Source: Thermoprotei archaeon (GTDB lineage Archaea; Thermoproteota; Thermoprotei; Gearchaeales; WAQG01). From it: DNA of 64,000 bases. The notes below the pieces were generated by a model that was given only the letters and a program-made list of their open reading frames with translations, made no database searches and was not told the origin of the DNA. Within the stretch, counting starts at the first letter, position 1. Each line of letters starts with the position of its first letter. The stretch is from positions 5,115-69,114 of the forward strand of contig JBMFIF010000002.1 of NCBI GenBank assembly GCA_049976445.1. The letters are read 5' to 3'. This document shows, in pieces, positions 43,433 through 60,605 of the stretch. The translations under genes were made by a program, and so were the position numbers.

Positions 43433-44152
43433 ATGAGTGTTGTAGAGCTAAAGAATGTGACAAAGGTTTATAGGTTGCCTGGCGCACCAGAGGTTTGGGC
43501 ATTAAGGAATATAAACTTGAAAGTAAGGAGAGGGGAATTTCTATCTATAATGGGACCTTCAGGTCATGGGAAAACTACATTGCTTCAGATTATAGGTCTG
43601 CTTGATAAACCAACATCTGGAACTGTTATTATAAATGGTGTTGAAGTTAATGGTCTTAGTGATAATGAGCTTGCAAGGTTTAGAAATAAAGTATTAGGAT
43701 TTGTTTTTCAACAGTATAATTTGATTAATAGAATGAGTGTCCTAGAAAATATAGAGATACCATTAATAATAAGAGGGATTCCTAGGAGTAAAAGAATTGA
43801 GATTGTGAAAGAAGCATTAATGATGGTTGGCGGGGATCTTACATGGCTTACTAAAAAGCCTTCTCAATTATCAGGTGGTCAACAACAGAGAGTAGCAATA
43901 GCAAGAGCTATCGTGGGTAATCCAGAAATAATATTAGCGGATGAACCGACTGGTAATCTCGATTCAGAATCTTCTAAGATAATAATGGAAACATTTGTGA
44001 AACTTAATAAAACTGGTAAAACAATAATCATGGTCACGCATAATCCTGAAATTGCCATGTGTAGCGAAAGGATAGTATTAATTAGAGATGGTATCATAGT
44101 TGGTGAAGAAAGATCAGACCCTAGTAAAAGCATTCTTTATGTTAAACGTTAA
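43433..44152 (+). CDS. ABC transporter ATP-binding protein (LolD/MacB/FtsE-like)
   Basis: 239 aa with Walker A GPSGHGKTT, signature LSGGQQQR and Walker B ILADEP. Confidence 0.8.
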   Translation: MSVVELKNVTKVYRLPGAPEVWALRNINLKVRRGEFLSIMGPSGHGKTTLLQIIGLLDKPTSGTVIINGVEVNGLSDNELARFRNKVLGFVFQQYNLINRMSVLENIEIPLIIRGIPRSKRIEIVKEALMMVGGDLTWLTKKPSQLSGGQQQRVAIARAIVGNPEIILADEPTGNLDSESSKIIMETFVKLNKTGKTIIMVTHNPEIAMCSERIVLIRDGIIVGEERSDPSKSILYVKR

Positions 44153-44220
44153 CCTCCTATATTTTGTGAAGATAAACTAAAAACTTAAATTTATCTGAGA
44201 ATTATTAATTTGAGTAAAAA

Positions 44221-47200
44221 ATGAAAAATCGATTTATTGCTGCATTTTTGATGATTTTTATTTTATTGGAGATTCCGCTGTATCTTCAATCTGTGTTTGC
44301 TTCAGGTAATTTTACGTTAGTATCTACATTATGGGGTTCTCAATCTAACCCTCAAAAGGTTTATCCTGGAAGTAGTAATGTAAGATTTATTGTTCTAATT
44401 AGGAATGATTATTCAAATTTAGTCAGTGTTGTTGGGTATCTCAGCTTACCTTATGGATTTTCTGGTACGAATGGTGGAAATGTTTTAAGTGCTGTCGGTT
44501 ACATATCAACAAATAACACTATAAGATATAATATAAATAAGGGGGAAATCTTTGAACTTGATTATTTCTTAAATATAGCTGGCTTTTTAGCTCCGGGCAC
44601 TTATTACGGTAATTTGACCTTGAATTTTACTAACTCTACATTTTCAAACGGTAATTTTACTATGAATGTGCCAATGACAGTTAGTAGTTTTCCAACATTT
44701 AATTTTCAAATTATTAGTGTATACTGGTCAACAACTGGAGGTACTATAGTTAACGCTGTACCTGGCACAAGAAACGTTGAACTTAACGTTATTCTTAAAA
44801 ATATTGGCACTGACAATATCAATAGTATATCGGCTCAACTAATTCTAAACAAGCCATTTAATCCTAATAAAGTTATGAGTAGTGCACAGCAAGTAAATAA
44901 AGGCAGCACGTTTACGCTAACGTTTACAGGTATTTCAATTGATTTTGCCAGCGCACCTGGTAACTATATGGAACAGTTAATGATTAACTCTACTTTTATT
45001 GGATACGGAGGAGCTACTAGCACATACACAAATATGATTAATTTATCATTAGTAATAGGGAACTATTCAAATGCAGGAATACAAATTGTTAGTGTTCAGT
45101 GGAATGGTGGTGAAAAGGTTTATTCCGGATCTAGGAAAGTTTCATTAGATGTAGTAATACAAAACATGGGAAGCTACACAATAAGTAATATGTTATCACG
45201 TATAATTCTTCCTAGTGGTTTCACCAATGCATATGGTTCAAACATAATTAATACAACATCTACTGCTGTCCTAAATTACGGAAATAGTATTACATTAAAC
45301 TTTAGTCCAATATACATAGGTGACTCTACAAAACCTGGTATTTATTATGTTAGACTTGTTATTATGTCAGTTGTTTCAATAGATAACACAAATCTGATAG
45401 CAAAGGATAATTTTACCATACCGATTTATGTTAATGATTTAATAACACCAATTGATCTGGTAAGTGTAGATTGGTCTTATAATGGAAATCCAGCACCTGC
45501 TTTACCAGGATCGCAATATGTAATACTGTCAATCACTTTTGTAAATAGAGGAGAAGATACATATTCAGGTTTTCAACCGAGGTTAATACTACCCCGAGGT
45601 TTTACGGTCTTTGGAACTAGTGCAGATCCTGGTCCTATTACGCCAGGTTCAATATTTACGGTTAGATCTTATGTGAATGTTAGTGATACCGTATTACCAG
45701 GGAATTATATTGCGAATTTAACTTTAAGGTTTAGTGTAAATCCATCAGGTATAAATACTGTTGGATCGATGAACTTCTCAATACCACTTTACATAATGGA
45801 TCCTAAAGGTTTTGATACCAAAATATCCATAGTAAATGCTTATTGGGGCACTGGTACCCCTAATCCAGTTTATCCAGGATCTAAAAATGTACCTTTAACT
45901 GTTGAGATTGTTAATGTTGGACTTTATACAGCACAAGCTGTTCAAATAGGTATTTCTGCTCCTGAAACTTTCACACCAATAATTAATTCAACTAGCGTCA
46001 CATCTACATTACCTTCAGGTTCCTTTGCCTCTGCTGTCTTGTATTTTGATATATCACCACATACTACTCCAGGATCTTATGTGTTCTTAGTGAACGTGAA
46101 ATATTTTATAAGTGTTTATGGTGCAACAATATATAGATATGTTAAATTTGTTTTTGTATTGTATGTATCTCAACCAACTTCAGGGCCTCCATATATTAAT
46201 GTAGTTAATTCGGGTTGGCTTAATAATTATCCTGTATATCCTGGGACTCAGAATGCTACATTCAGTTTAACTATAAACAATGAGGCGCCATTTCCGATTG
46301 CTGGGATTCATTTAAAACTTGTTTTACCTAGAGGATTTACACCTGGAGTCAATGGAGTAGAATCATACATAGGAGGCCCAATACAGCAATGGCAAACAGC
46401 GTCTGCAAGTTTTAGTATAAATGTTAATGCGAGCACATTACCTGGATTATATACTGCATCCTTAAAAATTGATTATATTTTATTGAGTGGAGGAAATAAC
46501 TTAAAGAATAGCGAAGAGAAAGAGATAGTACTACGTGTAAACTCGTTAAAAGGTTTTGAATATATTACATATAATTGGGTCGGATATGCTCCGAACCCGG
46601 GTAATGTAGGAGCTACTTTGATTGTTCTTGTCAGAAATACAGAGGTGCCAACTATGAAGGGAATCGTTGCAGAGATTCAGTTACCAAAAGGTTTTAACTC
46701 TACAATAACTGGGACAAGAGTTTTTAATGTAACACCTTATATATTTACTTCTATAAATCAGGTTCAGAATTTATTACAACGCACACCTGTTTCTAGCTTA
46801 CAATTTATGGTTCCTCAACAAGCAACACAAGCAAATCTCGGAGATTTCCTGGCAATACCTATATCAGTATCTATTAACAAAAATGTAACCCCAGGCTATT
46901 ATCCGATAATAATAAAGCTTAATTTTTTAGATCAATGGAATGTTGTTAGGAACGTTATAGTTAATGGAGACTTCTGGCTACCAGGTTCATCAAACATTAT
47001 TCAAGTTGTAGAAGGAAAATCTAAGTTATTAGTTGGTAATAGGACTGCAGAAATCAATATATATCTTAGGAATAATGGTTCATCGTCAGTTTACAACGTG
47101 TATGTTGCAATAACTAACATGGAAGCACCAATCTCGATATCGTCAACTGTGAAATATATACCTATAATTGGGCCCAATTCTGAAGTGCCCGTATCATGGG

Positions 47201-47799
47201 TTGTATCCGTAAGCCCTTCAATCAGTTATTTGGGGTCAGTACCGATAGTACTTTCAATTACTTTTGTAGATCCTGCAGGCTTCAGGCATAATATTACTCA
47301 GACAGCAATTCTTTTCATAGAAGGTCTTGCTGAAATAAAGTTCGTTGATGTAACCGTGGAGCCAAAACCTATCTATTTAGGTTCCACAATAACAATATCG
47401 GCAACATTAATCAACTTAGGAACTTATAAGGCCGGAAACGTTGAGGCATGGTTAGAGGGTAATGACATAATTACACTTTCTAATTCATATACGTTTGTGG
47501 GTGATATAGATGTTGGTTCGCAAATACCGATAAGTTTATCAGCTAATATAAGCAACAAAGCTGTAAATAAAACAATCGTGTATATAGTAATTAAATTTAA
47601 GAATGTTTTTAATGAAATAACGACTGAACGGTATCCGATAGTTCTGAACATTACATATAAACCTCCACAGACGCAAACACAAGCGCAGAGTCTTATTTTA
47701 CCAAATGTATACGAACTTTTAATAATTGTAGCTACTGTTATATTCCTATCAGTAAGTGGATATATGATCTATCTCTTGTATAAGAAAACAAAGCATTAA
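44221..47799 (+). CDS. giant cell-surface protein with about 9-10 tandem CARDB/COG1361-like beta-sandwich repeats and a C-terminal membrane anchor
   Basis: 1192 aa with a signal peptide. It has recurring ~110-aa units, each carrying V/YPGS.NV...L.V.I.N.G (for example VYPGSSNVRFIVLIRN and VYPGSKNVPLTVEIVNVG). A C-terminal TM helix is followed by a KKTKH tail. Confidence 0.6.
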   Translation: MKNRFIAAFLMIFILLEIPLYLQSVFASGNFTLVSTLWGSQSNPQKVYPGSSNVRFIVLIRNDYSNLVSVVGYLSLPYGFSGTNGGNVLSAVGYISTNNTIRYNINKGEIFELDYFLNIAGFLAPGTYYGNLTLNFTNSTFSNGNFTMNVPMTVSSFPTFNFQIISVYWSTTGGTIVNAVPGTRNVELNVILKNIGTDNINSISAQLILNKPFNPNKVMSSAQQVNKGSTFTLTFTGISIDFASAPGNYMEQLMINSTFIGYGGATSTYTNMINLSLVIGNYSNAGIQIVSVQWNGGEKVYSGSRKVSLDVVIQNMGSYTISNMLSRIILPSGFTNAYGSNIINTTSTAVLNYGNSITLNFSPIYIGDSTKPGIYYVRLVIMSVVSIDNTNLIAKDNFTIPIYVNDLITPIDLVSVDWSYNGNPAPALPGSQYVILSITFVNRGEDTYSGFQPRLILPRGFTVFGTSADPGPITPGSIFTVRSYVNVSDTVLPGNYIANLTLRFSVNPSGINTVGSMNFSIPLYIMDPKGFDTKISIVNAYWGTGTPNPVYPGSKNVPLTVEIVNVGLYTAQAVQIGISAPETFTPIINSTSVTSTLPSGSFASAVLYFDISPHTTPGSYVFLVNVKYFISVYGATIYRYVKFVFVLYVSQPTSGPPYINVVNSGWLNNYPVYPGTQNATFSLTINNEAPFPIAGIHLKLVLPRGFTPGVNGVESYIGGPIQQWQTASASFSINVNASTLPGLYTASLKIDYILLSGGNNLKNSEEKEIVLRVNSLKGFEYITYNWVGYAPNPGNVGATLIVLVRNTEVPTMKGIVAEIQLPKGFNSTITGTRVFNVTPYIFTSINQVQNLLQRTPVSSLQFMVPQQATQANLGDFLAIPISVSINKNVTPGYYPIIIKLNFLDQWNVVRNVIVNGDFWLPGSSNIIQVVEGKSKLLVGNRTAEINIYLRNNGSSSVYNVYVAITNMEAPISISSTVKYIPIIGPNSEVPVSWVVSVSPSISYLGSVPIVLSITFVDPAGFRHNITQTAILFIEGLAEIKFVDVTVEPKPIYLGSTITISATLINLGTYKAGNVEAWLEGNDIITLSNSYTFVGDIDVGSQIPISLSANISNKAVNKTIVYIVIKFKNVFNEITTERYPIVLNITYKPPQTQTQAQSLILPNVYELLIIVATVIFLSVSGYMIYLLYKKTKH

Positions 47800-47809
47800 G
47801 TGATTATTT

Positions 47810-49027
47810 ATGATAAGGGTTAGTGATATTTTTAGATTCGCTTTCTCGATACTAACTGAAAAGAAATTAAGAGCTATTTTAACTATTATAGGAATAGCAA
47901 TAGGCCCTGCTGCTATGGTCACGATAATAGGTACAACCCAAGGATACTCGTTAACTATAGTAAATAGTCTCACTTCATTAGGCCAGAACATTATTGTAGC
48001 TTTTCCTGAGAAAGGTTATAGTTTTACTGATAATACAGTTAACACTCTTAAATCATTAAGCTATGTGAAAACAGCAATACCATTTTATACTTCACAAGGT
48101 ATAATAAAAAGATCTGACGGATCACAACTTACTGTTTCAATTTATGCCACTAACCTAGATGAATTGTTTAAAGCCGTTTCTAGTTTAGAACTTGAAAGTG
48201 GTATTATTCCTAATCCTACATCATACACATCAGGCATATTAGGTCATGATATAGTATATAAGGATAATAATAAGTTGATCAATGTGGGCGATTCCGTAGG
48301 AATAAAGATTGTCATTGCAAAAGGTAATAATTTAGAAGTAAAAAATATCAATGTAAGGATTTCTGGTATATTAAGTAAATACGGCAGTGCATTAGTCCTT
48401 AACCCTGATTCAACACTATTTTTGCCTCTTCAAGCCGGTCGCTCATTACTATCGATGAACAACTACAGTGGAATATTGGTCGTTGCAGTAGATAGTTCGC
48501 ATGTGGTGAATATAGTCGATGAAATCAAAAATAAATATCAAGATTTAGTAACCACATTTGCATTCCAACAGATTGCTAATATAATTAGTTCAGTCGTAGA
48601 TACATTAAACTTTCTGCTTTTTGCTTTATCTTCATCAGCATTTAGTGTAGCAGTTACTGGAACAATGGCTACCATGTTCACATCTGTGATAGAAAGAAGC
48701 AAAGAGATAGGCGTGCTTAAAGCAATGGGATATTCGAATGCGCTTGTTCTATTGTTAATCACAACTGAGGCACTTTTAATGAGTTTATTAGGGGGCATAA
48801 TGGGAGTAATAATTGGAGCTATTGGAGCTAACATCCTTTCTTCGGCAGGTTCGTTTGTAATTAGGGGAGTAAGCGAATCAATAACAATAAAAGCAGGGCC
48901 TTTAATAACTATTGATCTAATATTAAGGTCTATAGGTATGGCTATAGTTGTTGGTATAATAGGGGGTTTCATACCAGCTTATAGAGCATCTAAGATACAA
49001 CCAGCTATTGCACTTAGATACGAGTAA
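47810..49027 (+). CDS. ABC transporter permease, FtsX/MacB-like
   Basis: 405 aa. An N-terminal TM helix and a large extracytoplasmic domain are followed by a C-terminal 3-TM FtsX-type domain. Confidence 0.7.
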   Translation: MIRVSDIFRFAFSILTEKKLRAILTIIGIAIGPAAMVTIIGTTQGYSLTIVNSLTSLGQNIIVAFPEKGYSFTDNTVNTLKSLSYVKTAIPFYTSQGIIKRSDGSQLTVSIYATNLDELFKAVSSLELESGIIPNPTSYTSGILGHDIVYKDNNKLINVGDSVGIKIVIAKGNNLEVKNINVRISGILSKYGSALVLNPDSTLFLPLQAGRSLLSMNNYSGILVVAVDSSHVVNIVDEIKNKYQDLVTTFAFQQIANIISSVVDTLNFLLFALSSSAFSVAVTGTMATMFTSVIERSKEIGVLKAMGYSNALVLLLITTEALLMSLLGGIMGVIIGAIGANILSSAGSFVIRGVSESITIKAGPLITIDLILRSIGMAIVVGIIGGFIPAYRASKIQPAIALRYE

Positions 49028-52906: not shown

Positions 52907-53083
52907 ATGAATACCTATTTAATCTTCGCATAAATATTTTACCATCAAATATGCAAAGCTAATCTCGTTATACGCTATGGGCATGATGGGGTTGTGAAGC
53001 ATGAAGCTCCCCAATTTTAGTTGGGAGTAGTTCACTTTAGAGTTAAGTTTATTTTTAATGGAGGTTTTAGTAAATAGATTAGA

Positions 53084-54721
53084 ATGATTGATGTAAGATA
53101 TTTAATTAATCAAATGAGCCTTGAAGAAAAAATTGGTAACCTGTTTATGTTTGGTTTTGACAGTACTGATGACAGTAGAGCTGTTACAGAAAGATTAAAA
53201 ATTATTATCGACCAGTATCATGTTGGAGGAATAATTTATTTTTCTAGAAATTTAAAGAGTGCTAAACAAGCTGCTGAACTTTCTAAATCAATACAATCGT
53301 TATCAAGGCGTAACAATTATGTGTTGCCCGTTATCATAGCAACGGATCAAGAAGGTGGTAATGTAGTCAGACTAAGAGATGGCACAATATTTCCTGGTAA
53401 TATGAGTCTTGGTGCTATAGGTTCTAAAAAGATTACTTATGAGGTAGGTCGTATTATTGGTAAGGAATTGATCTCAGTAGGAATAAACATGAACTTGGCA
53501 CCAGTTTTAGATGTGAACACAAATCCTGTAAATCCTGTGATAGGTATTAGATCGTTTGGTGGTGATCCTGAGATGGTCGCATCGTTAGGTGGAGCATACA
53601 TTGAAGGTCTTCATTCTGAAGGTGTACTAGCCGTAGCAAAACATTTTCCAGGACATGGTGACTCATCGTTGGATTCTCATTTGGATCTTCCAATAATAAA
53701 TAAAGATCTTGACGAATTAATGAAGATTCATATAAAACCATTCATGGATGCAATTAGTATGTTTAATGTTGATGCAATAATGACTGCACATGTAGTATAT
53801 CCAGCTCTCGACAAAGAAAATCCTGCAACGCTTTCTAGAAAAATATTAAGAGAATTTTTGCGCGAAAAATTAGGATTCAATGGGGTTATAATGACAGATG
53901 ATATGGAGATGAGAGCAATAAGTGATAGATATGCACCTGGTGATGCTTCTATTAAGGCATTAAAGGCTGGTGCAGACCTCATACTTTTCTCTCATACATA
54001 TTCTAAACAAATTGAGGCTTATAATACTGTTCTTAAGGCAGTAGAAAATGAGTATATTACAAATGATGAGTTAGATGAGAAGGTTAGAAGGATTCTTCAG
54101 CTTAAACTTCGCGTTATAGATCATATGAGTAAAATAGATCCATCGATTGTCGGTAAGAAGGAACATCGTGACTTTGAATTAGAAGTCGCTAGAAAGGCTG
54201 TAACATTGTTAAAAAATAATAATAGAGTATTACCAATTAAAGGTGAACGAGAGGTTATAATTGTTGAACCAAAAATAGGTATTTCATCACAAGTTGAAGA
54301 AAAATATCAACCATTATATTTATCTGAAATACTTAAGAATTATCTTAAAATAAAGAGTGTAGTAGTTAATAAGGATTTAAACGATGATTATTACAGTAAG
54401 TTTTCCAAACTCTTAGAAAGTAATAGTGCTGCTGTATTTTTAATCGTAATTTCGTCTAAAGATGGTGTTGAATTCTTTAATAAAATAGTGCAGAATAATA
54501 ACTATAATAATGATACTGTAGTGGTTCTTTTTAAGAATCCTTTTCTCATAAATTATTTAAATACTAATCGCAGTGATTCAATAATAATAGGATACGCTTA
54601 TACACAGTGTATGATTATTGCAATTAGTGAGCTTATCATAGGAAAAATTAAGCCTAATGGTAAATTGCCAGTTAACTTAAATGAAGAGTATAAAATTGGT
54701 TATGGTATGAGAGATTTTTAG
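53084..54721 (+). CDS. nagZ: GH3 beta-N-acetylglucosaminidase, NagZ-type (two-domain)
   Basis: 545 aa. KHFPGHGDSSLDSH exactly fits the NagZ-specific KH(F/I)PG(H/L)G-x4-D(S/T)H signature with the Asp-His dyad. Confidence 0.75.
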   Translation: MIDVRYLINQMSLEEKIGNLFMFGFDSTDDSRAVTERLKIIIDQYHVGGIIYFSRNLKSAKQAAELSKSIQSLSRRNNYVLPVIIATDQEGGNVVRLRDGTIFPGNMSLGAIGSKKITYEVGRIIGKELISVGINMNLAPVLDVNTNPVNPVIGIRSFGGDPEMVASLGGAYIEGLHSEGVLAVAKHFPGHGDSSLDSHLDLPIINKDLDELMKIHIKPFMDAISMFNVDAIMTAHVVYPALDKENPATLSRKILREFLREKLGFNGVIMTDDMEMRAISDRYAPGDASIKALKAGADLILFSHTYSKQIEAYNTVLKAVENEYITNDELDEKVRRILQLKLRVIDHMSKIDPSIVGKKEHRDFELEVARKAVTLLKNNNRVLPIKGEREVIIVEPKIGISSQVEEKYQPLYLSEILKNYLKIKSVVVNKDLNDDYYSKFSKLLESNSAAVFLIVISSKDGVEFFNKIVQNNNYNNDTVVVLFKNPFLINYLNTNRSDSIIIGYAYTQCMIIAISELIIGKIKPNGKLPVNLNEEYKIGYGMRDF

Positions 54722-54729
54722 GTGATCTA

Positions 54730-55842
54730 ATGGAGTTGTATTATGGAACACCTGAAGAAGCCGGATTAAATAAGGTACGATTAGATAAGATTCATGAGTT
54801 TATGAAAAAATACGTTAATGATGCCTTTCCAGGTGCTGTAATACTTATTGCGCGTAAAAGTGTAATTGCATTTCATGAAGCATATGGCAGCTCACAGATT
54901 ATACCAGTAAAAAGAGAAATGACAAGGGAGACAATATTTGATCTAGCATCTCTTACTAAACCTCTAGCAACATCAATAATAACTATGAGACTAGTTGAAG
55001 ATGGTCTTATAAATCTAAGACAAAAAATTTCAACAATATTTGATGAAATAGGGAAAGATGAAATAAAGCGCGAAATTACATTATGGCATTTGCTCACTCA
55101 CACATCTGGGTTACCTGCATGGGAACCTTTTTACAAAGGCTTTAAAGACAAAAAAGAAATAATTAAAGCTGCACTTAGCGCATTTCCTTCAAGCAAACCC
55201 GGTGAGAAATATACATATAGTGATCTAGGCTATATTATTTTAACTGGTATTGCAGAAGAAGTTTCTGGTAAAACATTTGACAAATTATTCGAAGAATATG
55301 TAGCATCACCATTAAGCCTTAAAGATACAATGTTTAATCCACCGGATTATTTAAAATCCCGCATAGCAGCTACAGAATTATGCGAATGGAGAGGAGAAGT
55401 TTTAGTTGGTTCTGTTCATGATGAGAATGCATATGCAATGGGTGGTGTAAGCGGTCATGCTGGACTTTTCTCAACAGCATTGGATATCGCTAAGATAGCA
55501 CAAATGATGCTTAACGGTGGAATCTATGGATCAAAAGAAATCTTATCTAGATCTTCCGTTCAGATTATGATAAAAAATCATGTTAAAAATTTAGGTGCTG
55601 GTTATGGTTTAGGGTGGATGATAAATAATGCCCCCAATGGAACATCAGCTGGAGATCTGTTTTCTAAAGAATCTTTTGGACATACTGGCTTTACAGGAAC
55701 ATCTCTTTGGGTTGATCCGGAAAAGGAGTTAATAGCAGTTTTACTTACTAATAGAATACATCCCTCAAGACAAAATACAAAACTTATAGAACTAAGACCA
55801 AAAATACATAACCTGATAGCATCAACTTTAACAAGATATTAA
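54730..55842 (+). CDS. beta-lactamase-fold serine hydrolase (class C beta-lactamase / DD-peptidase / esterase family)
   Basis: 370 aa with SLTK (SxxK), YSD (YxN-position) and HTG (KTG-position) motifs. No signal peptide is obvious, so it is probably cytoplasmic. Confidence 0.7.
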   Translation: MELYYGTPEEAGLNKVRLDKIHEFMKKYVNDAFPGAVILIARKSVIAFHEAYGSSQIIPVKREMTRETIFDLASLTKPLATSIITMRLVEDGLINLRQKISTIFDEIGKDEIKREITLWHLLTHTSGLPAWEPFYKGFKDKKEIIKAALSAFPSSKPGEKYTYSDLGYIILTGIAEEVSGKTFDKLFEEYVASPLSLKDTMFNPPDYLKSRIAATELCEWRGEVLVGSVHDENAYAMGGVSGHAGLFSTALDIAKIAQMMLNGGIYGSKEILSRSSVQIMIKNHVKNLGAGYGLGWMINNAPNGTSAGDLFSKESFGHTGFTGTSLWVDPEKELIAVLLTNRIHPSRQNTKLIELRPKIHNLIASTLTRY

Positions 55843-55868: not shown

Positions 55869-55955
55869 GGTAGTTGAATCATTTTAGGATAAATTTTATA
55901 CTGTTTTAAGAAATGATGGGTATGAATTGGTTCATACTAATCTGGTTCCACTACC
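55869..55955 (+). repeat. copy 1 of an ~85-nt intergenic repeat
   Basis: About 85% identical to 60520-60605. It has an internal hairpin (gtatgaa-ttgg-ttcatac) and a ggtagt...actacc closing stem. Confidence 0.55.
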
Positions 55956-56204
55956 GTTCTAGAGGGAAAAGAAATCAAATGCATAAGAGGACCCTACAAT
56001 CATATCAGGAGGAAGCTCCAGAAGAAGGGACTCCTAAAAAAGGATAGAGGAGGCATGAGCCCTCTTGAACTGGCAAATGAGGTTGGAGGATAAAGCCCCC
56101 AGCTGAACATCAGAAGCTCAGCCTTTTAGGAGTAGCTCATATAATCGACATTATTGTGTATAATGAATCTCAGTACTTAAGCTCACCAATTTTTCTATAA
56201 TTAT

Positions 56205-56711: not shown

Positions 56712-57284
56712 TTATTGTACTTTAAATAAAACATCTATGATCTTTTGTATATATTCATAAGGTTGCTCTACGCGTTCAGCAAAATCCATAGAAATAACAT
56801 AATAAAATAAATTTCCAAGGAATATTTTTAAATAAAACTCATCGATCATTTTTCCAGTTAGGTTCTGTATTTTTTCTTTTAATTTGGTATAGTTTGAGTG
56901 ATGAATTTTTTTGAAGGTTTCTTTAATTTCACTGTATCTATTTGCTATTCCTATGGAATAAAGGAAAAGTTTTCTTTCAATGGGGTCATTGTATTTTAGA
57001 ATATATTTTAATGCTAGATCATTAAGCATTTCTTTAACATCATTATAATGTTTTTCTATTACATTGTTTAATACTTCAACTGGTGAAACACTGATAGCAA
57101 TCTCTTTGATTAATTGCTCTTTGCTTGTAAAATATGTATAAAATGTGCCTTTGGAGAGTTTAACTTTTTCCATTATTTCATCTACTGTAGTCAAGTCAAA
57201 ACCTTTTTCAGCGAATATTTGACGTGCAGCCATGATGATTAATTTCTTTTTTTCGTTATTGCTATTCCTCATAATCCTACACAT
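56712..57284 (-). CDS. TetR/AcrR family transcriptional regulator
   Basis: 190 aa. The N-terminal HTH region is ARQIFAEKGFDLTTVDEIMEKVKLSKGTFYTYF. It is divergent from the radical SAM genes. Confidence 0.75.
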   Translation of the reverse strand: MCRIMRNSNNEKKKLIIMAARQIFAEKGFDLTTVDEIMEKVKLSKGTFYTYFTSKEQLIKEIAISVSPVEVLNNVIEKHYNDVKEMLNDLALKYILKYNDPIERKLFLYSIGIANRYSEIKETFKKIHHSNYTKLKEKIQNLTGKMIDEFYLKIFLGNLFYYVISMDFAERVEQPYEYIQKIIDVLFKVQ

Positions 57285-57372
57285 AATTTAGTTCTGCATA
57301 GTTATATACTTTTTGGCTAACTAGTCAGTCAAAAATATAAGTATCTTTAAAGAAATATATAAGTGAGAAATT

Positions 57373-58896
57373 ATGGGTAATACTAATGGTTCGAATTCAA
57401 TGGTTAATGCTATAGAATCATTTAAGGGTATTGTAGATAATCCATTGAGTAAGTATTTATTAAGATATTTAACTGGTTATTGTGAGAAGGATCATGAGAA
57501 TCGGTTAGAGGTTGCTCTTGAACTTTACTTAGGAATTAGGAAAGATGCTTGTTTTTCTTGTCGATCAGCTTCTAAGGTTGTTAGTTACATTGTTAAAAAA
57601 GGTGCAAAGAGTTTTGGAGTTAGTGAGGATCAATTAAAAAGTACTATGAAAGATTCGTATTGGAGAAGAGGTCTTATTAGTGTACTTAAAGGTATAGCAT
57701 TTTTTGGTGTTCGCAAGCCGTTTGTACCAGGGGCTCCGTTTCAAGTCGTATGGAATATAACCAAAGCGTGTAATATGAACTGTTTGCATTGTTATGAAAG
57801 CGCTGGCATAAAGGGTAATGATGAACTCACTTCTGAACAAATTCATCAGGGAATAGATATACTTGCTGATGCTGGCGTAACTATCTTAGCGTTTTCTGGA
57901 GGTGAGCCAACAATACATCCTAATATAGTAGAATTCATTAGTCATGCTCACAATAGGGGAATGTACGTAGCTATTGCTACTAATGGTTATGTTTTAGCCA
58001 ATAAGTATGTTATAAGAAAATTAAAGAGTGCAGGTTTAGGATATGTACAGATTAGTCTAGATGGTCTGAATCCAAACACTCATGACTCATTTAGAAGGGT
58101 GAAGGGTGCTTGGGAACATGCTGTTCGTGCAATAAAAAATAGTATTGAGGAAGGATTATTTGTTGAAGTAGCTACTACTGTTACAAAATACAATATTAAT
58201 GAAATACCTGAAATGATTAAGTTTGTCAGAAATCTTAAAGCTAATTGGTTTATGTTATATAATTTTGTCCCTACAGGGCGTGGGAAAGAGATTATAGAAA
58301 GTGATCTTTCACCGAGAGAACGTTTTGATCTTTTAAAATTAGCCTATTCAGAAACAGGTGATGGTGGTTTGCAAGTGCTTTCCACAGCTCCTCAGTATGC
58401 TGCTGTTGCGCAAATGTTTAATAAGAATGGTAAGAATATAATACCAACTCATTTCTATAATCCTGAATATAATGATCCAAAAATACGTCAGTTAGCAGAA
58501 TTTATTGGTGGTTGTGGTGCTGGGAGGTTTTATATATCGATCGAGCCAAATGGAGACATATATCCATGCGTATTCTTTCCACATGTAGATGAAGTAAAAA
58601 TCGGTAATTTGTTAAAAGATGATTTCGAAAAACTTTGGAGGGAACATGAGTTATTATGGAAATTACGAAATAAGGATATTTTAGAAGGATTCTGTGGTAA
58701 ATGTGCGTTTAGATATACATGTGGGGGGTGTCGAGCTCGTGCATATAATTATTTTGGCAACGTATTAGCACCTGACCCAGGATGCATTTTTAATTCTAAA
58801 GAATGGAATAAATTAAGGTCTGAATTGCTTATTAAATATCATGCAGAGGAAACACCAGCAGGTAATATTCTCATAAGAATAAATGATACACCATGA
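57373..58896 (+). CDS. radical SAM enzyme with C-terminal SPASM domain and ~120-aa N-terminal extension
   Basis: 507 aa with CNMNCLHCY (CxxxCxxC), a SPASM-type [21 protein letters not shown] region and a Cys-rich tail. N-terminal CFSC. Confidence 0.75.
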
Positions 58897-60341
58897 CGCG
58901 CATTATTCTCATAAATCCTATAGATAGAACTCAGATCACTAATAGGCTTGGACTAAAAGCACCACCACTAAATTTAATGTACCTTGCGTCTGCGCTTGAA
59001 AAAGCTGGATTCTATGTTAAAATTATAGATGCTAATCTTTATAATATACTACCGCATCAAATAGCAAGAGTAATAAAAGGGTTTAGACCTGATATTATTG
59101 GTTTAACAGCTGCAACCGCTACCATAAAAACTGCTTTACATTATGTATCAGAAATCAAAAAGGCTATATCAAACGTATTTACCATAATAGGTGGACCTCA
59201 TGTTACTTTTCTTCCAACAGAAACATTGAATATGTCAAAAGATTTAGATGCGGTAGTTATAGGTGAAGGTGAAGAAACCATCGTCAAGATAGCAGAATCT
59301 TATGAAAAAAGTAATCCGGAATGGCTTTCTAACATAAGAGGAGTGGCTTATAGGATAAAAAATCATGATTCAAGTAAAATAAAAATCACACCCCCAAGGC
59401 CTTTTATTAAAAACTTAGATTTAATACCATTCCCGGCTCGTCATTTAGTACCGTTTAACGAATATAAGCTGTACAACAAGGATACACCCATAGGTAGTAT
59501 GATTACAAGTAGGGGTTGCGTTTTTGCATGTAATTATTGTTCATCCTCGCACCTGATGGGAAGAATGTTTCGAGCACGCAGTTCAAAAAATGTAGTTGAT
59601 GAAATCGAAGAATTAGTATACAAATACAATGTTGATACAATCGAATTTATTGATGATATTTTCACTCTAAACAAAAAACGTGCATTAGAGATTGCTAAGG
59701 AAATACGCTCTAGAAAAATTGATATAAACTTTGTTGCATCATCTAGAGTTGATACTATAAACCGTGAATTATTAACAGAATTAAAAAAAGCTGGGCTTTC
59801 AACAATGTATTATGGTGTAGAATCAGGTTCAGAACGCGTTTTAAAATTAATGAATAAAAGAATCACGTTATCACAAGCGGAAAAAGCCATAAATGAAACT
59901 AAAAACATTGGTGTTAGTACACTAGCATCATTCATACTAGGTTATCCAGGTGAAACTCTTAATGAGATGTGGGCCACTATAAAATTCTCTATAAAACTTA
60001 ACCCAGATTATGCACAATTCTCCATACTCACACCATATCCTGGGACACCAATATACTATGAACTTAAACAAAAAGGATTAATCGCTACAGAAGATTGGGA
60101 TAAATACACAGTATTAGACCCAGTTATAGAATATGAAAAATTAGGATTAAGCAAACACATAGTCTCAAAAATGCTCAGAGAAGCATATTTAAGATTTTAT
60201 CTAAGACCAAGATACTTATTAAAACGAATAACAATGTTAAAGGCTCTAATATATACAATGATCAATACTTATATCTTACCTATTTTTCAACACAAAGACT
60301 CATTAGGTTGGTATAAGGACCTAAGCACTCATCACGATTGA
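58893..60341 (+). CDS. B12-binding (class B) radical SAM enzyme
   Basis: 482 aa. An N-terminal cobalamin-binding Rossmann-like domain is followed by the [10 protein letters not shown] radical SAM motif. A 4-nt overlap with the upstream radical SAM gene. Confidence 0.8.
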
Positions 60342-60519: not shown

Positions 60520-60605
60520 GGTAGTCGAATCATTTTAGGATAAATTTTATACTATCTTAAGAAAAGATGAGTATGGATTGGTTCATACTAACCTGACTCC
60601 ACCAC
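60520..60605 (+). repeat. copy 2 of the ~85-nt intergenic repeat
   Basis: Same orientation as copy 1. It starts about 180 nt after the B12-rSAM stop. Confidence 0.55.

Follow-up and report, generated by a model that had tools for sequence, protein, structure and literature searches.

The window analysed here, i.e. the whole 64,000-nucleotide stretch of contig JBMFIF010000002.1 from a Thermoprotei archaeon, carries a pair of plus-strand genes which encode a glycoside hydrolase of family 3 (GH3) and a serine hydrolase of the beta-lactamase fold. The first gene (53084..54721, 545 aa) was assigned by Pfam, NCBIfam and PDB matches to the two-domain NagZ-type beta-N-acetylglucosaminidases, and the second (54730..55842, 370 aa) was assigned by Pfam, NCBIfam and sequence identity to the PBP4B(YfeW)/AmiE subfamily. 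The genes are separated by a spacer of 8 nt. In-frame stop codons were found 2 and 12 codons upstream of the two open reading frame (ORF) starts, respectively, therefore neither ORF can be extended in the upstream direction. Inspection of the sequences revealed no signal peptide, N-terminal hydrophobic segment or transmembrane segment in the GH3 protein or the hydrolase and, as their starts are not extendable, both proteins are predicted to be cytoplasmic. A TATA-box-like A/T-rich element, TTTATTTTTAAT, was read from the sequence at 53048..53059 of the plus strand, about 30 nt 5' of the GH3 ATG. If the element acts as archaeal promoters generally do, its position implies a leaderless or near-leaderless GH3 gene. 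A Shine-Dalgarno-like GGTGAT (54721..54726, plus strand) is located 3 nt 5' of the hydrolase ATG and overlaps the stop codon of the GH3 gene. This motif supports the putative translational coupling of the two genes on one transcript.

The same contig encodes Topo VI A/B, a CdvC/Vps4-like ATPase, Cdc48 and Thg1, which identifies the host as archaeal; AspRS and IleRS belong to the archaeal markers of the contig as well. A near-identical contig is present in the 'Thermoprotei archaeon' metagenome-assembled genome GCA_049973215.1, and the deposited GH3 protein is 99.6% identical, with 2 residues differing. In the IleRS search, the identity fell from 85% to below 60% after two matches, and the nearest named relatives (50-54%) were all uncultured Thermoproteota. 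The host, an archaeon from hot springs, was therefore placed in a deep uncultured lineage. The GC content and the GC content at third codon positions (GC3) of the pair resembled those of the neighbouring genes, GC3 being 0.20-0.21 in the GH3 and hydrolase genes and 0.22-0.26 in the neighbours. An earlier note, prepared from the letters of the window alone, had described two ORFs at 53084-55842 with an 8-nt gap in an archaeal host; its coordinates were exact and the contig markers agree with the host. Archaea have no murein, the cell wall polymer of the bacterial type.

In the GH3 protein, the Pfam domains Glyco_hydro_3 (PF00933, 2e-98) and GH3_C (PF01915, 1.4e-08) were detected, the former at residues 13-340. 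The Asp-His acid/base dyad motif of NagZ, KHFPGHGDSSLDSH, was located by a regular expression match at residues 186-199 (codons 53639..53680, plus strand). It aligns with GKHFPGHGAVTADSH of Escherichia coli NagZ, fits the pattern KH(F/I)PG(H/L)G-x4-D(S/T)H and is kept in every member of the archaeal clade described below. The NagZ-specific signature KHFPGHG-x4-DSH named in the earlier note was thereby recovered. The predicted catalytic nucleophile, Asp272 in VIMTDDMEM (codon 53897..53899, plus strand), was assigned from alignment A3, in which its column is invariant, also in E. coli NagZ and the GH3 proteins of Halanaerobiales. The score with the NCBIfam beta-N-acetylhexosaminidase equivalog NF003740 was 232.1 bits, which passes the cut-off of 207, and the xylosidase and glucosidase models of NCBIfam resulted in 59-132 bits with cut-offs of 666-1350. 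With the hexosaminidase cut-off passed, the grouping with glucosidases or xylosidases, which the earlier note had considered as the contrary outcome, was not observed. The best solved relatives are two-domain N-acetylglucosaminidases, 6k5j of Paenibacillus (1e-98) and YbbD/NagZ of Bacillus subtilis (9e-83). Domains, dyad, nucleophile and equivalog score confirm the protein as a NagZ-type beta-N-acetylglucosaminidase with a predicted activity. For GH3 enzymes with a His dyad, the question of hydrolase versus phosphorylase has been raised (PMC6987092).

The hydrolase matched the Pfam family Beta-lactamase (PF00144, 8e-62). The SxxK nucleophile and base, S74-L-T-K77 (codons 54949..54960, plus strand), is invariant in alignments A1 and A2. 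The second active-site motif is Y163-S-D165 (codons 55216..55224, plus strand) and the equivalent of the KTG box is H318-T-G320 (codons 55681..55689, plus strand); D165 and H318 are specific for the subfamily, and the position of D165 is occupied by N in AmpC and AmpH. With these motifs and no signal peptide, the protein corresponds to the cytoplasmic SxxK hydrolase of the AmpC/DD-peptidase fold that had been proposed for this gene. Its AlphaFold model (pLDDT 96, pTM 0.94) had a TM score of 0.85 to the beta-lactamase/S12 fold, and the nearest solved folds were EstG, the family VIII esterases and Pab87, each with identities of 25% or less.

The best NCBIfam model for the hydrolase was PBP4B (NF002968; 218 bits, E 1.6e-64, equivalog cut-off 385), followed by AmpH with 78 bits. 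The identity to E. coli YfeW was 35% over the full length (E 3e-62), and that to the Bacillaceae genes in the amiE operon position was 39-42%. AmiE was thus compared through its positional orthologues, e.g. that of Planomicrobium (MurQ, MurP, MupG, hydrolase, GH3, NamZ; locus L069). The hydrolase keeps each of the 42 positions for which the conservation among 27 subfamily members reaches at least 95%. Thirteen of them (D71, D165, T215, V229, H230, D231, H243, F247, G264, H318, T322, S325 and H344) differ in both AmpC and AmpH and are shared with YfeW and the amiE-position genes. By its sequence, the hydrolase is a member of the PBP4B(YfeW)/AmiE subfamily and not one of the generic esterases, and its predicted function is that of an amidase which cleaves between N-acetylmuramic acid (MurNAc) and L-Ala.

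Two other assignments of the hydrolase were rejected. A family VIII carboxylesterase (EstB/EstU1) was dismissed because H-T-G stands where EstU1 (4ivi) has W-G-G in the HMMER alignment, and because the identities to esterase structures did not exceed 25%, in comparison with 33-45% to PBP4B/AmiE-type genes. The grouping with carboxylesterases, which the earlier note had named as evidence against its proposal, was therefore not found. A self-compartmentalising S12 peptidase of the CubicO/Pab87 type was dismissed because the hydrolase has no C-terminal lipocalin and nothing follows the S12 domain in its 370 aa; 2qmi (Pab87) is matched only over residues 5-327 of the 447-aa chain.

The pair was found also in relatives with GH3 identities of 81% and 63% (hydrolase 86% and 78%, respectively), where the flanking genes are entirely different. 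In the neighbour-joining (NJ) trees of both proteins, a nine-member archaeal clade was obtained with a bootstrap of 100 and the same internal branching, which indicates that the GH3 and the hydrolase have been inherited together. Only one close relative (L096) was added by the metagenome scan. The catalytic motifs are present and signal peptides are absent in all the members of the clade. The omega values (ratio of nonsynonymous to synonymous substitution rates) from comparisons within the clade were 0.15-0.21 (GH3) and 0.10-0.12 (hydrolase), with synonymous divergences (dS) of 0.6-1.2, i.e. both genes are under purifying selection. In the 81% relative, a TnpB gene (Cas12f1-like_TNB) is situated immediately downstream of the pair.

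No archaeal GH3 relatives outside the nine-member clade were detected in the GH3 search. Beyond the clade, the GH3 identity falls from 63% to 44% with a solo gene (P0009) and to about 41% with Halanaerobiales and other Bacillota. This 44% relative, placed as sister to the GH3 clade of the archaea, occurs by itself on a contig of 6.5 kb and is uninformative. The sister clade of the hydrolase (bootstrap 100) consists of solo archaeal genes from Brockarchaeota/Thermoproteota with identities of 58-62%, and further archaeal hydrolase clades occur in the tree. The bootstrap values of the deep nodes of both NJ trees were below 25, so that 'nested within Bacillota' refers to best-hit similarity and not to a supported node. 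Judged by the similarity ranks, the GH3 is likely of bacterial origin. The recruitment of the GH3 beside a hydrolase already resident in archaea would be at least as plausible as the transfer of the pair as one module. As for the horizontally acquired bacterial module of the earlier note, which was to be checked by nesting within bacterial clades, the nearest named relatives of the GH3 are Bacillota, but the nearest relatives of the hydrolase are solo archaeal genes which form its sister group with a bootstrap of 100. The acquisition of both genes en bloc was not borne out, as the sisters of the hydrolase are archaeal and the gene order is opposite to that of Bacillota.

In a Brockarchaeota locus (L008:8001-14329), a solo sister hydrolase (60% identity) follows an ABC importer of the Bmp family and no GH3 is present. 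The genes of a TrmB regulator and of a NagA equivalog (TIGR00221, 320 bits with a cut-off of 226) are located 4 kb from this hydrolase, which gives it an amino-sugar context. Another lineage, putatively archaeal as well (L016, which bears the label Nitrososphaerota, L110:7321-9961 and L111), has a hydrolase gene that is followed after a 1-nt gap by a GH3-like gene; an ABC importer and a regulator are encoded next to the two. At only 26% identity to the GH3 of the window, the GH3-like protein has lost the dyad (KPFPVRCGAEQEGE) and kept the nucleophile Asp. This lineage was considered as an independent assembly of a NagZ pair, a reading which was downgraded since a partner without the Asp-His dyad is not countable as NagZ. 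The GH3-like protein may be a non-catalytic or re-purposed partner.

Around the pair of the window, a 15-nt direct repeat was the only cassette-insertion signature seen, and the GC and GC3 values were the same as in neighbouring genes. The copies of the repeat, AAGCTCCCCAATTTT at 53004-53018 and AAGCTCACCAATTTT at 56179-56193, are identical in 14 of 15 positions and bracket the two-gene unit at distances of 66 nt upstream and 337 nt downstream. The repeat could be a chance match or an insertion relic.

To describe the coupling of the two enzymes across bacteria, an unselected census of 160 loci of the hydrolase subfamily was compiled among the matches listed, with 80 loci from species-representative genomes, almost exclusively bacterial, and 80 from metagenomes. 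The hydrolases of the census were 35-52% identical to that of the window, with one exception at 78%. A GH3 was fused or nearby in 82 of the 160 loci. In 53 loci, the two proteins form a single fusion ORF of about 920-1100 aa with the GH3 always N-terminal; a separate GH3 was adjacent in 15 and within approximately 2 kb in 14 loci, usually together with NamZ or MurQ. NamZ was present in 63 and MurQ in 41 of all the loci. When only the loci with flanks of at least 2.5 kb on both sides were counted (n = 102), a GH3 was fused or nearby in 64 and at least one murein or MurNAc gene was found in 74. The gene order and the tiny spacer of the window mirror the GH3-then-hydrolase order of the fusion protein. 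Because the pair is kept with different flanks and 64 of the 102 subfamily loci have a GH3, the adjacency in the window is not attributed to chance.

One fusion was checked by Pfam and contained GH3_N at residues 48-364, GH3_C at 403-567 and Beta-lactamase at 603-933, preceded by a signal peptide. The fusion loci (e.g. L019, L024, L057, L072, L073 and L107) come from Acidobacteriota, Gemmatimonadota, Bacteroidota, Ignavibacteria and Planctomycetota, and their proteins often have a signal peptide. On two metagenome contigs with a GC content of 0.40-0.43 (L097:324-4687 and L100:8583-16800), hydrolases 48-51% identical to that of the window are located by NamZ, MurQ and a BadF-type kinase. These two hydrolases are among the sequences from outside the archaeal clade that are most similar to it.

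The reading to which we give slightly better than even chances is that the genes form a two-gene operon whose cytoplasmic, exo-acting enzymes would dismantle imported bacterial muropeptides, the substrate and its import being presumed. In the first step, the GH3 (nucleophile Asp272, dyad Asp197/His199) would remove the non-reducing N-acetylglucosamine (GlcNAc) from GlcNAc-MurNAc-peptide or GlcNAc-anhydroMurNAc-peptide. In the second step, the hydrolase (Ser74, Lys77, Tyr163, His318-Thr-Gly) would act on the MurNAc-peptide thus exposed, cutting its lactyl-L-Ala amide and releasing the stem peptide. GlcNAc and the stem peptide could then serve as carbon and nitrogen sources. The fate of MurNAc, like the substrate, the amidase chemistry and the import, is a part of the model that we infer. 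Circumstantial hints toward muropeptide use come from the neighbours of the pair in the 81% relative. A gene which most resembles L-Ala-D/L-Glu and other dipeptide epimerases and a gene of an M24 (PepQ-like) peptidase are located approximately 6.5 kb downstream of that pair (L004:18339-20962), and a protein that combines DUF1028 with PG_binding_2, a putative peptidoglycan-binding domain, is encoded 9 kb upstream (L004:1-673). The epimerase-like gene matched PDB 3jva (1e-77) and YkfB (2e-76), and its best NCBIfam model, 'L-Ala-D/L-Glu epimerase', scored below the cut-off.

Several observations weigh against the use of muropeptides. Neither importers nor genes of MurNAc/GlcNAc catabolism are present close to the pair at the archaeal loci: tblastn with MurQ, MurP, NamZ, AnmK, MupG, NagA, NagB and the BadF-type kinase gave no match at these loci or in the window, and a muropeptide importer, MurK and a GlcNAc kinase were likewise not detected in the 64 kb of the window or at any archaeal pair locus. 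The sister archaeal hydrolases occur without any GH3. The PBP4B score of the hydrolase, 218 bits, is lower than the equivalog cut-off of 385, the closest solved folds of its predicted model are esterases, and E. coli PBP4B is described as a DD-carboxypeptidase and not as an amidase. NagZ-type GH3 enzymes also cleave chitooligosaccharides, e.g. RmNag3 of Rhodothermus marinus and the top PDB match, 6k5j.

One alternative is the salvage of GlcNAc from chitooligosaccharides or from the host's own N-glycans and S-layer glycoproteins, with the hydrolase as an unrelated or accessory enzyme (an esterase or a glycopeptide peptidase). We consider such salvage unlikely. The best PDB match, 6k5j, is a chitin-associated GlcNAcase of the GH3 family from Paenibacillus, the fused RmNag3 hydrolyses chitobiose and chitopentaose, MurNAc-specific genes are absent near the archaeal pair, and esterases are the nearest solved folds of the hydrolase. 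However, approximately every second locus sampled for the hydrolase subfamily shows a link to MurNAc-specific genes (the NamZ and MurQ counts being 63/160 and 41/160), no chitinase, GH18/GH20 enzyme or deacetylase was found near the pair, and the fusion or adjacency of the PBP4B/AmiE-type partner would be left without a reason. The processing of D-amino-acid peptides, where the hydrolase would act as a DD-carboxypeptidase or D-aminopeptidase on imported wall peptides and the GH3 independently on glycan, appears rather improbable. It draws on the description of E. coli PBP4B as a DD-carboxypeptidase, on the D-stereospecific exopeptidase activity of Pab87 on a muropeptide (PMC2651629) and on the solo sister genes in archaea, which have an ABC importer and a NagA equivalog as neighbours. 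Yet B. subtilis AmiE, the sole assigned member of the pairing, is an exo-MurNAc-L-Ala amidase which needs NagZ to act first, the fusion with GH3 argues for consecutive action on one molecule, and the lipocalin domain of Pab87 is absent from the hydrolase.

The absence of an importer nearby would suit also an endogenous substrate, in which case the lineage's own unrecognised GlcNAc-capped, peptide- or acyl-substituted glycoconjugate would be recycled by the pair instead of foreign murein. The cytoplasmic location of both enzymes, their strict co-inheritance and the full amelioration of their composition (GC3 of 0.20-0.21 vs 0.22-0.26) are in agreement with it. This alternative is nevertheless regarded as very unlikely, because no murein-like biosynthetic gene was seen in the 64 kb, the distribution is patchy, with the GH3 confined to one small clade unlike a core envelope pathway, and no support was found in the literature. 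If true, a murein-like conjugate with lactyl or amide linkage would exist beyond Bacteria and the methanogens that have pseudomurein. The least credible alternative is a decaying or functionless remnant of a horizontal transfer. The very narrow archaeal distribution of the GH3 and the TnpB gene beside the pair in the 81% relative could be explained in this way; both ORFs are, however, intact, the motifs are kept in 9/9 clade members, and the omega values of 0.10-0.21 at dS of 0.6-1.2 exclude a remnant without function.

Neither the two enzymes as a pair nor their operons in bacteria nor their fusion are new, and the new element is the unexpected archaeal host. Searches of the open-access literature did not turn up any description of an archaeal NagZ-type GH3 or NagZ/AmiE-type pair, and the database names are automatic only. 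A dedicated cytoplasmic pathway for feeding on muropeptides in archaea, with an as yet undiscovered importer and MurNAc route, has in our estimation about an even chance of being real. Peptidoglycan is among the largest pools of microbial necromass and its consumers in hot or anoxic habitats are poorly known. The conserved and selected operon of the NagZ + AmiE/PBP4B type offers a testable marker for archaea that feed on fragments of bacterial walls, and it extends the proposal made for Pab87 from the peptide part to the glycan-peptide junction. The hydrolase subfamily itself is widespread and understudied; one third of its sampled loci encode a fusion with GH3, and it has one biochemically assigned member. 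We know of no solved structure of the PBP4B/AmiE subfamily, and thermostable archaeal hydrolases could be convenient for structural and mechanistic work on it.

Further elements were noted in the window. An intergenic element of 86 nt occurs twice, at 55869-55954 and 60520-60605, with 88% identity. The copies lie downstream of plus-strand operons, i.e. after the hydrolase gene and after the gene of a B12-binding radical-SAM protein, and are predicted to form similar hairpins on the plus strand (-21 and -19 kcal/mol). A small RNA, a terminator module and a MITE-like repeat are conceivable identities of the element. Downstream of the pair, the spacer of 362 nt has a GC content of 37% in comparison with 34% of the window. 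The Rfam scan of the spacers resulted only in a sub-threshold C/D-box match, to the archaeal sRNA sR46 within this 362-nt spacer at 56116-56158 of the minus strand (20.9 bits with a gathering threshold of 50, E 0.08). At 56712-60341, a TetR-family regulator is encoded divergently from two overlapping genes, those of a radical-SAM/SPASM protein with 507 aa and of a B12-binding radical-SAM protein with 482 aa. These two proteins may be a peptide- or cofactor-maturation pair, and the radical-SAM/TetR group has the same position in deposited contigs. At 43433-49027, a large protein of 1192 aa, for which a faint match to NPCBM_assoc was the only one, is flanked by a MacB-type ABC system (an ATPase followed by an FtsX/MacB_PCD permease). 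The 1192-aa protein is uncharacterised and probably surface-associated.

Among the known systems, Pab87 of Pyrococcus abyssi is an archaeal S12 enzyme which trims disaccharide-pentapeptide and was proposed in 2009 to process bacterial wall debris (PMC2651629). It resembles the hydrolase as an archaeal enzyme of the beta-lactamase fold and as a structural neighbour of its model. It differs in its identity of only about 24%, C-terminal lipocalin domain, octameric state, lack of a GH3 partner and membership of another subfamily. E. coli PBP4B (YfeW), described as a penicillin-binding protein of low affinity, a DD-carboxypeptidase, has the YSD, VHDE, GHAGLFS and GHTG motifs in common with the hydrolase. 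In contrast to the archaeal gene, yfeW is the third gene of the MurNAc operon murQ-murP-yfeW and not a neighbour of nagZ, and YfeW has a signal peptide. In RmNag3 of R. marinus, both modules are present and their N-to-C order is that of the archaeal genes. Fusions of the RmNag3 type differ in being one secreted polypeptide of about 950-1100 aa with a GH3 part placed elsewhere in the tree, whereas the archaeal enzymes are cytoplasmic and encoded by two genes. The fusion architecture was known from RmNag3, the only fusion that has been characterised, with only its GH3 part studied and the lactamase domain uncharacterised (PMC6987092).

The Halanaerobiales, diderm Bacillota (L011 and L012), have the closest named GH3 relatives (39-41%) with an adjacent signal-less hydrolase of 42% identity, and both their pair and the archaeal one are cytoplasmic. 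They differ in their operon of BadF-type kinase, hydrolase, GH3, MurQ, AnmK, NagB, NamZ and GntR, in which the hydrolase precedes the GH3. PF00144 is the family given for AmiE (YbbE) of B. subtilis (PMC10653849 Table 1), which acts as an exo-MurNAc-L-Ala amidase after NagZ and belongs to the operon murQ-murR-murP-amiE-nagZ-namZ (PMC8054146; PMC5061867). The archaeal operon differs from that of B. subtilis in several respects: amiE precedes nagZ, while the archaeal order is GH3 then hydrolase; AmiE and NagZ are secreted, while the archaeal pair is predicted to be cytoplasmic; and murQ, murP, murR and namZ belong to the B. subtilis operon, while the archaeal pair has none of them nearby and its host has no murein. 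The likeness lies in the combination of a two-domain Asp-His GH3, NagZ (YbbD) in B. subtilis, with a PF00144 hydrolase encoded by the adjacent gene, the B. subtilis enzymes acting sequentially. The proposal of the earlier note that NagZ and AmiE of Bacillus represent the same pair was upheld, the homology being supported by the 35% identity to YfeW, the 42% identity to the Halanaerobiales hydrolase and the 13 shared residues.

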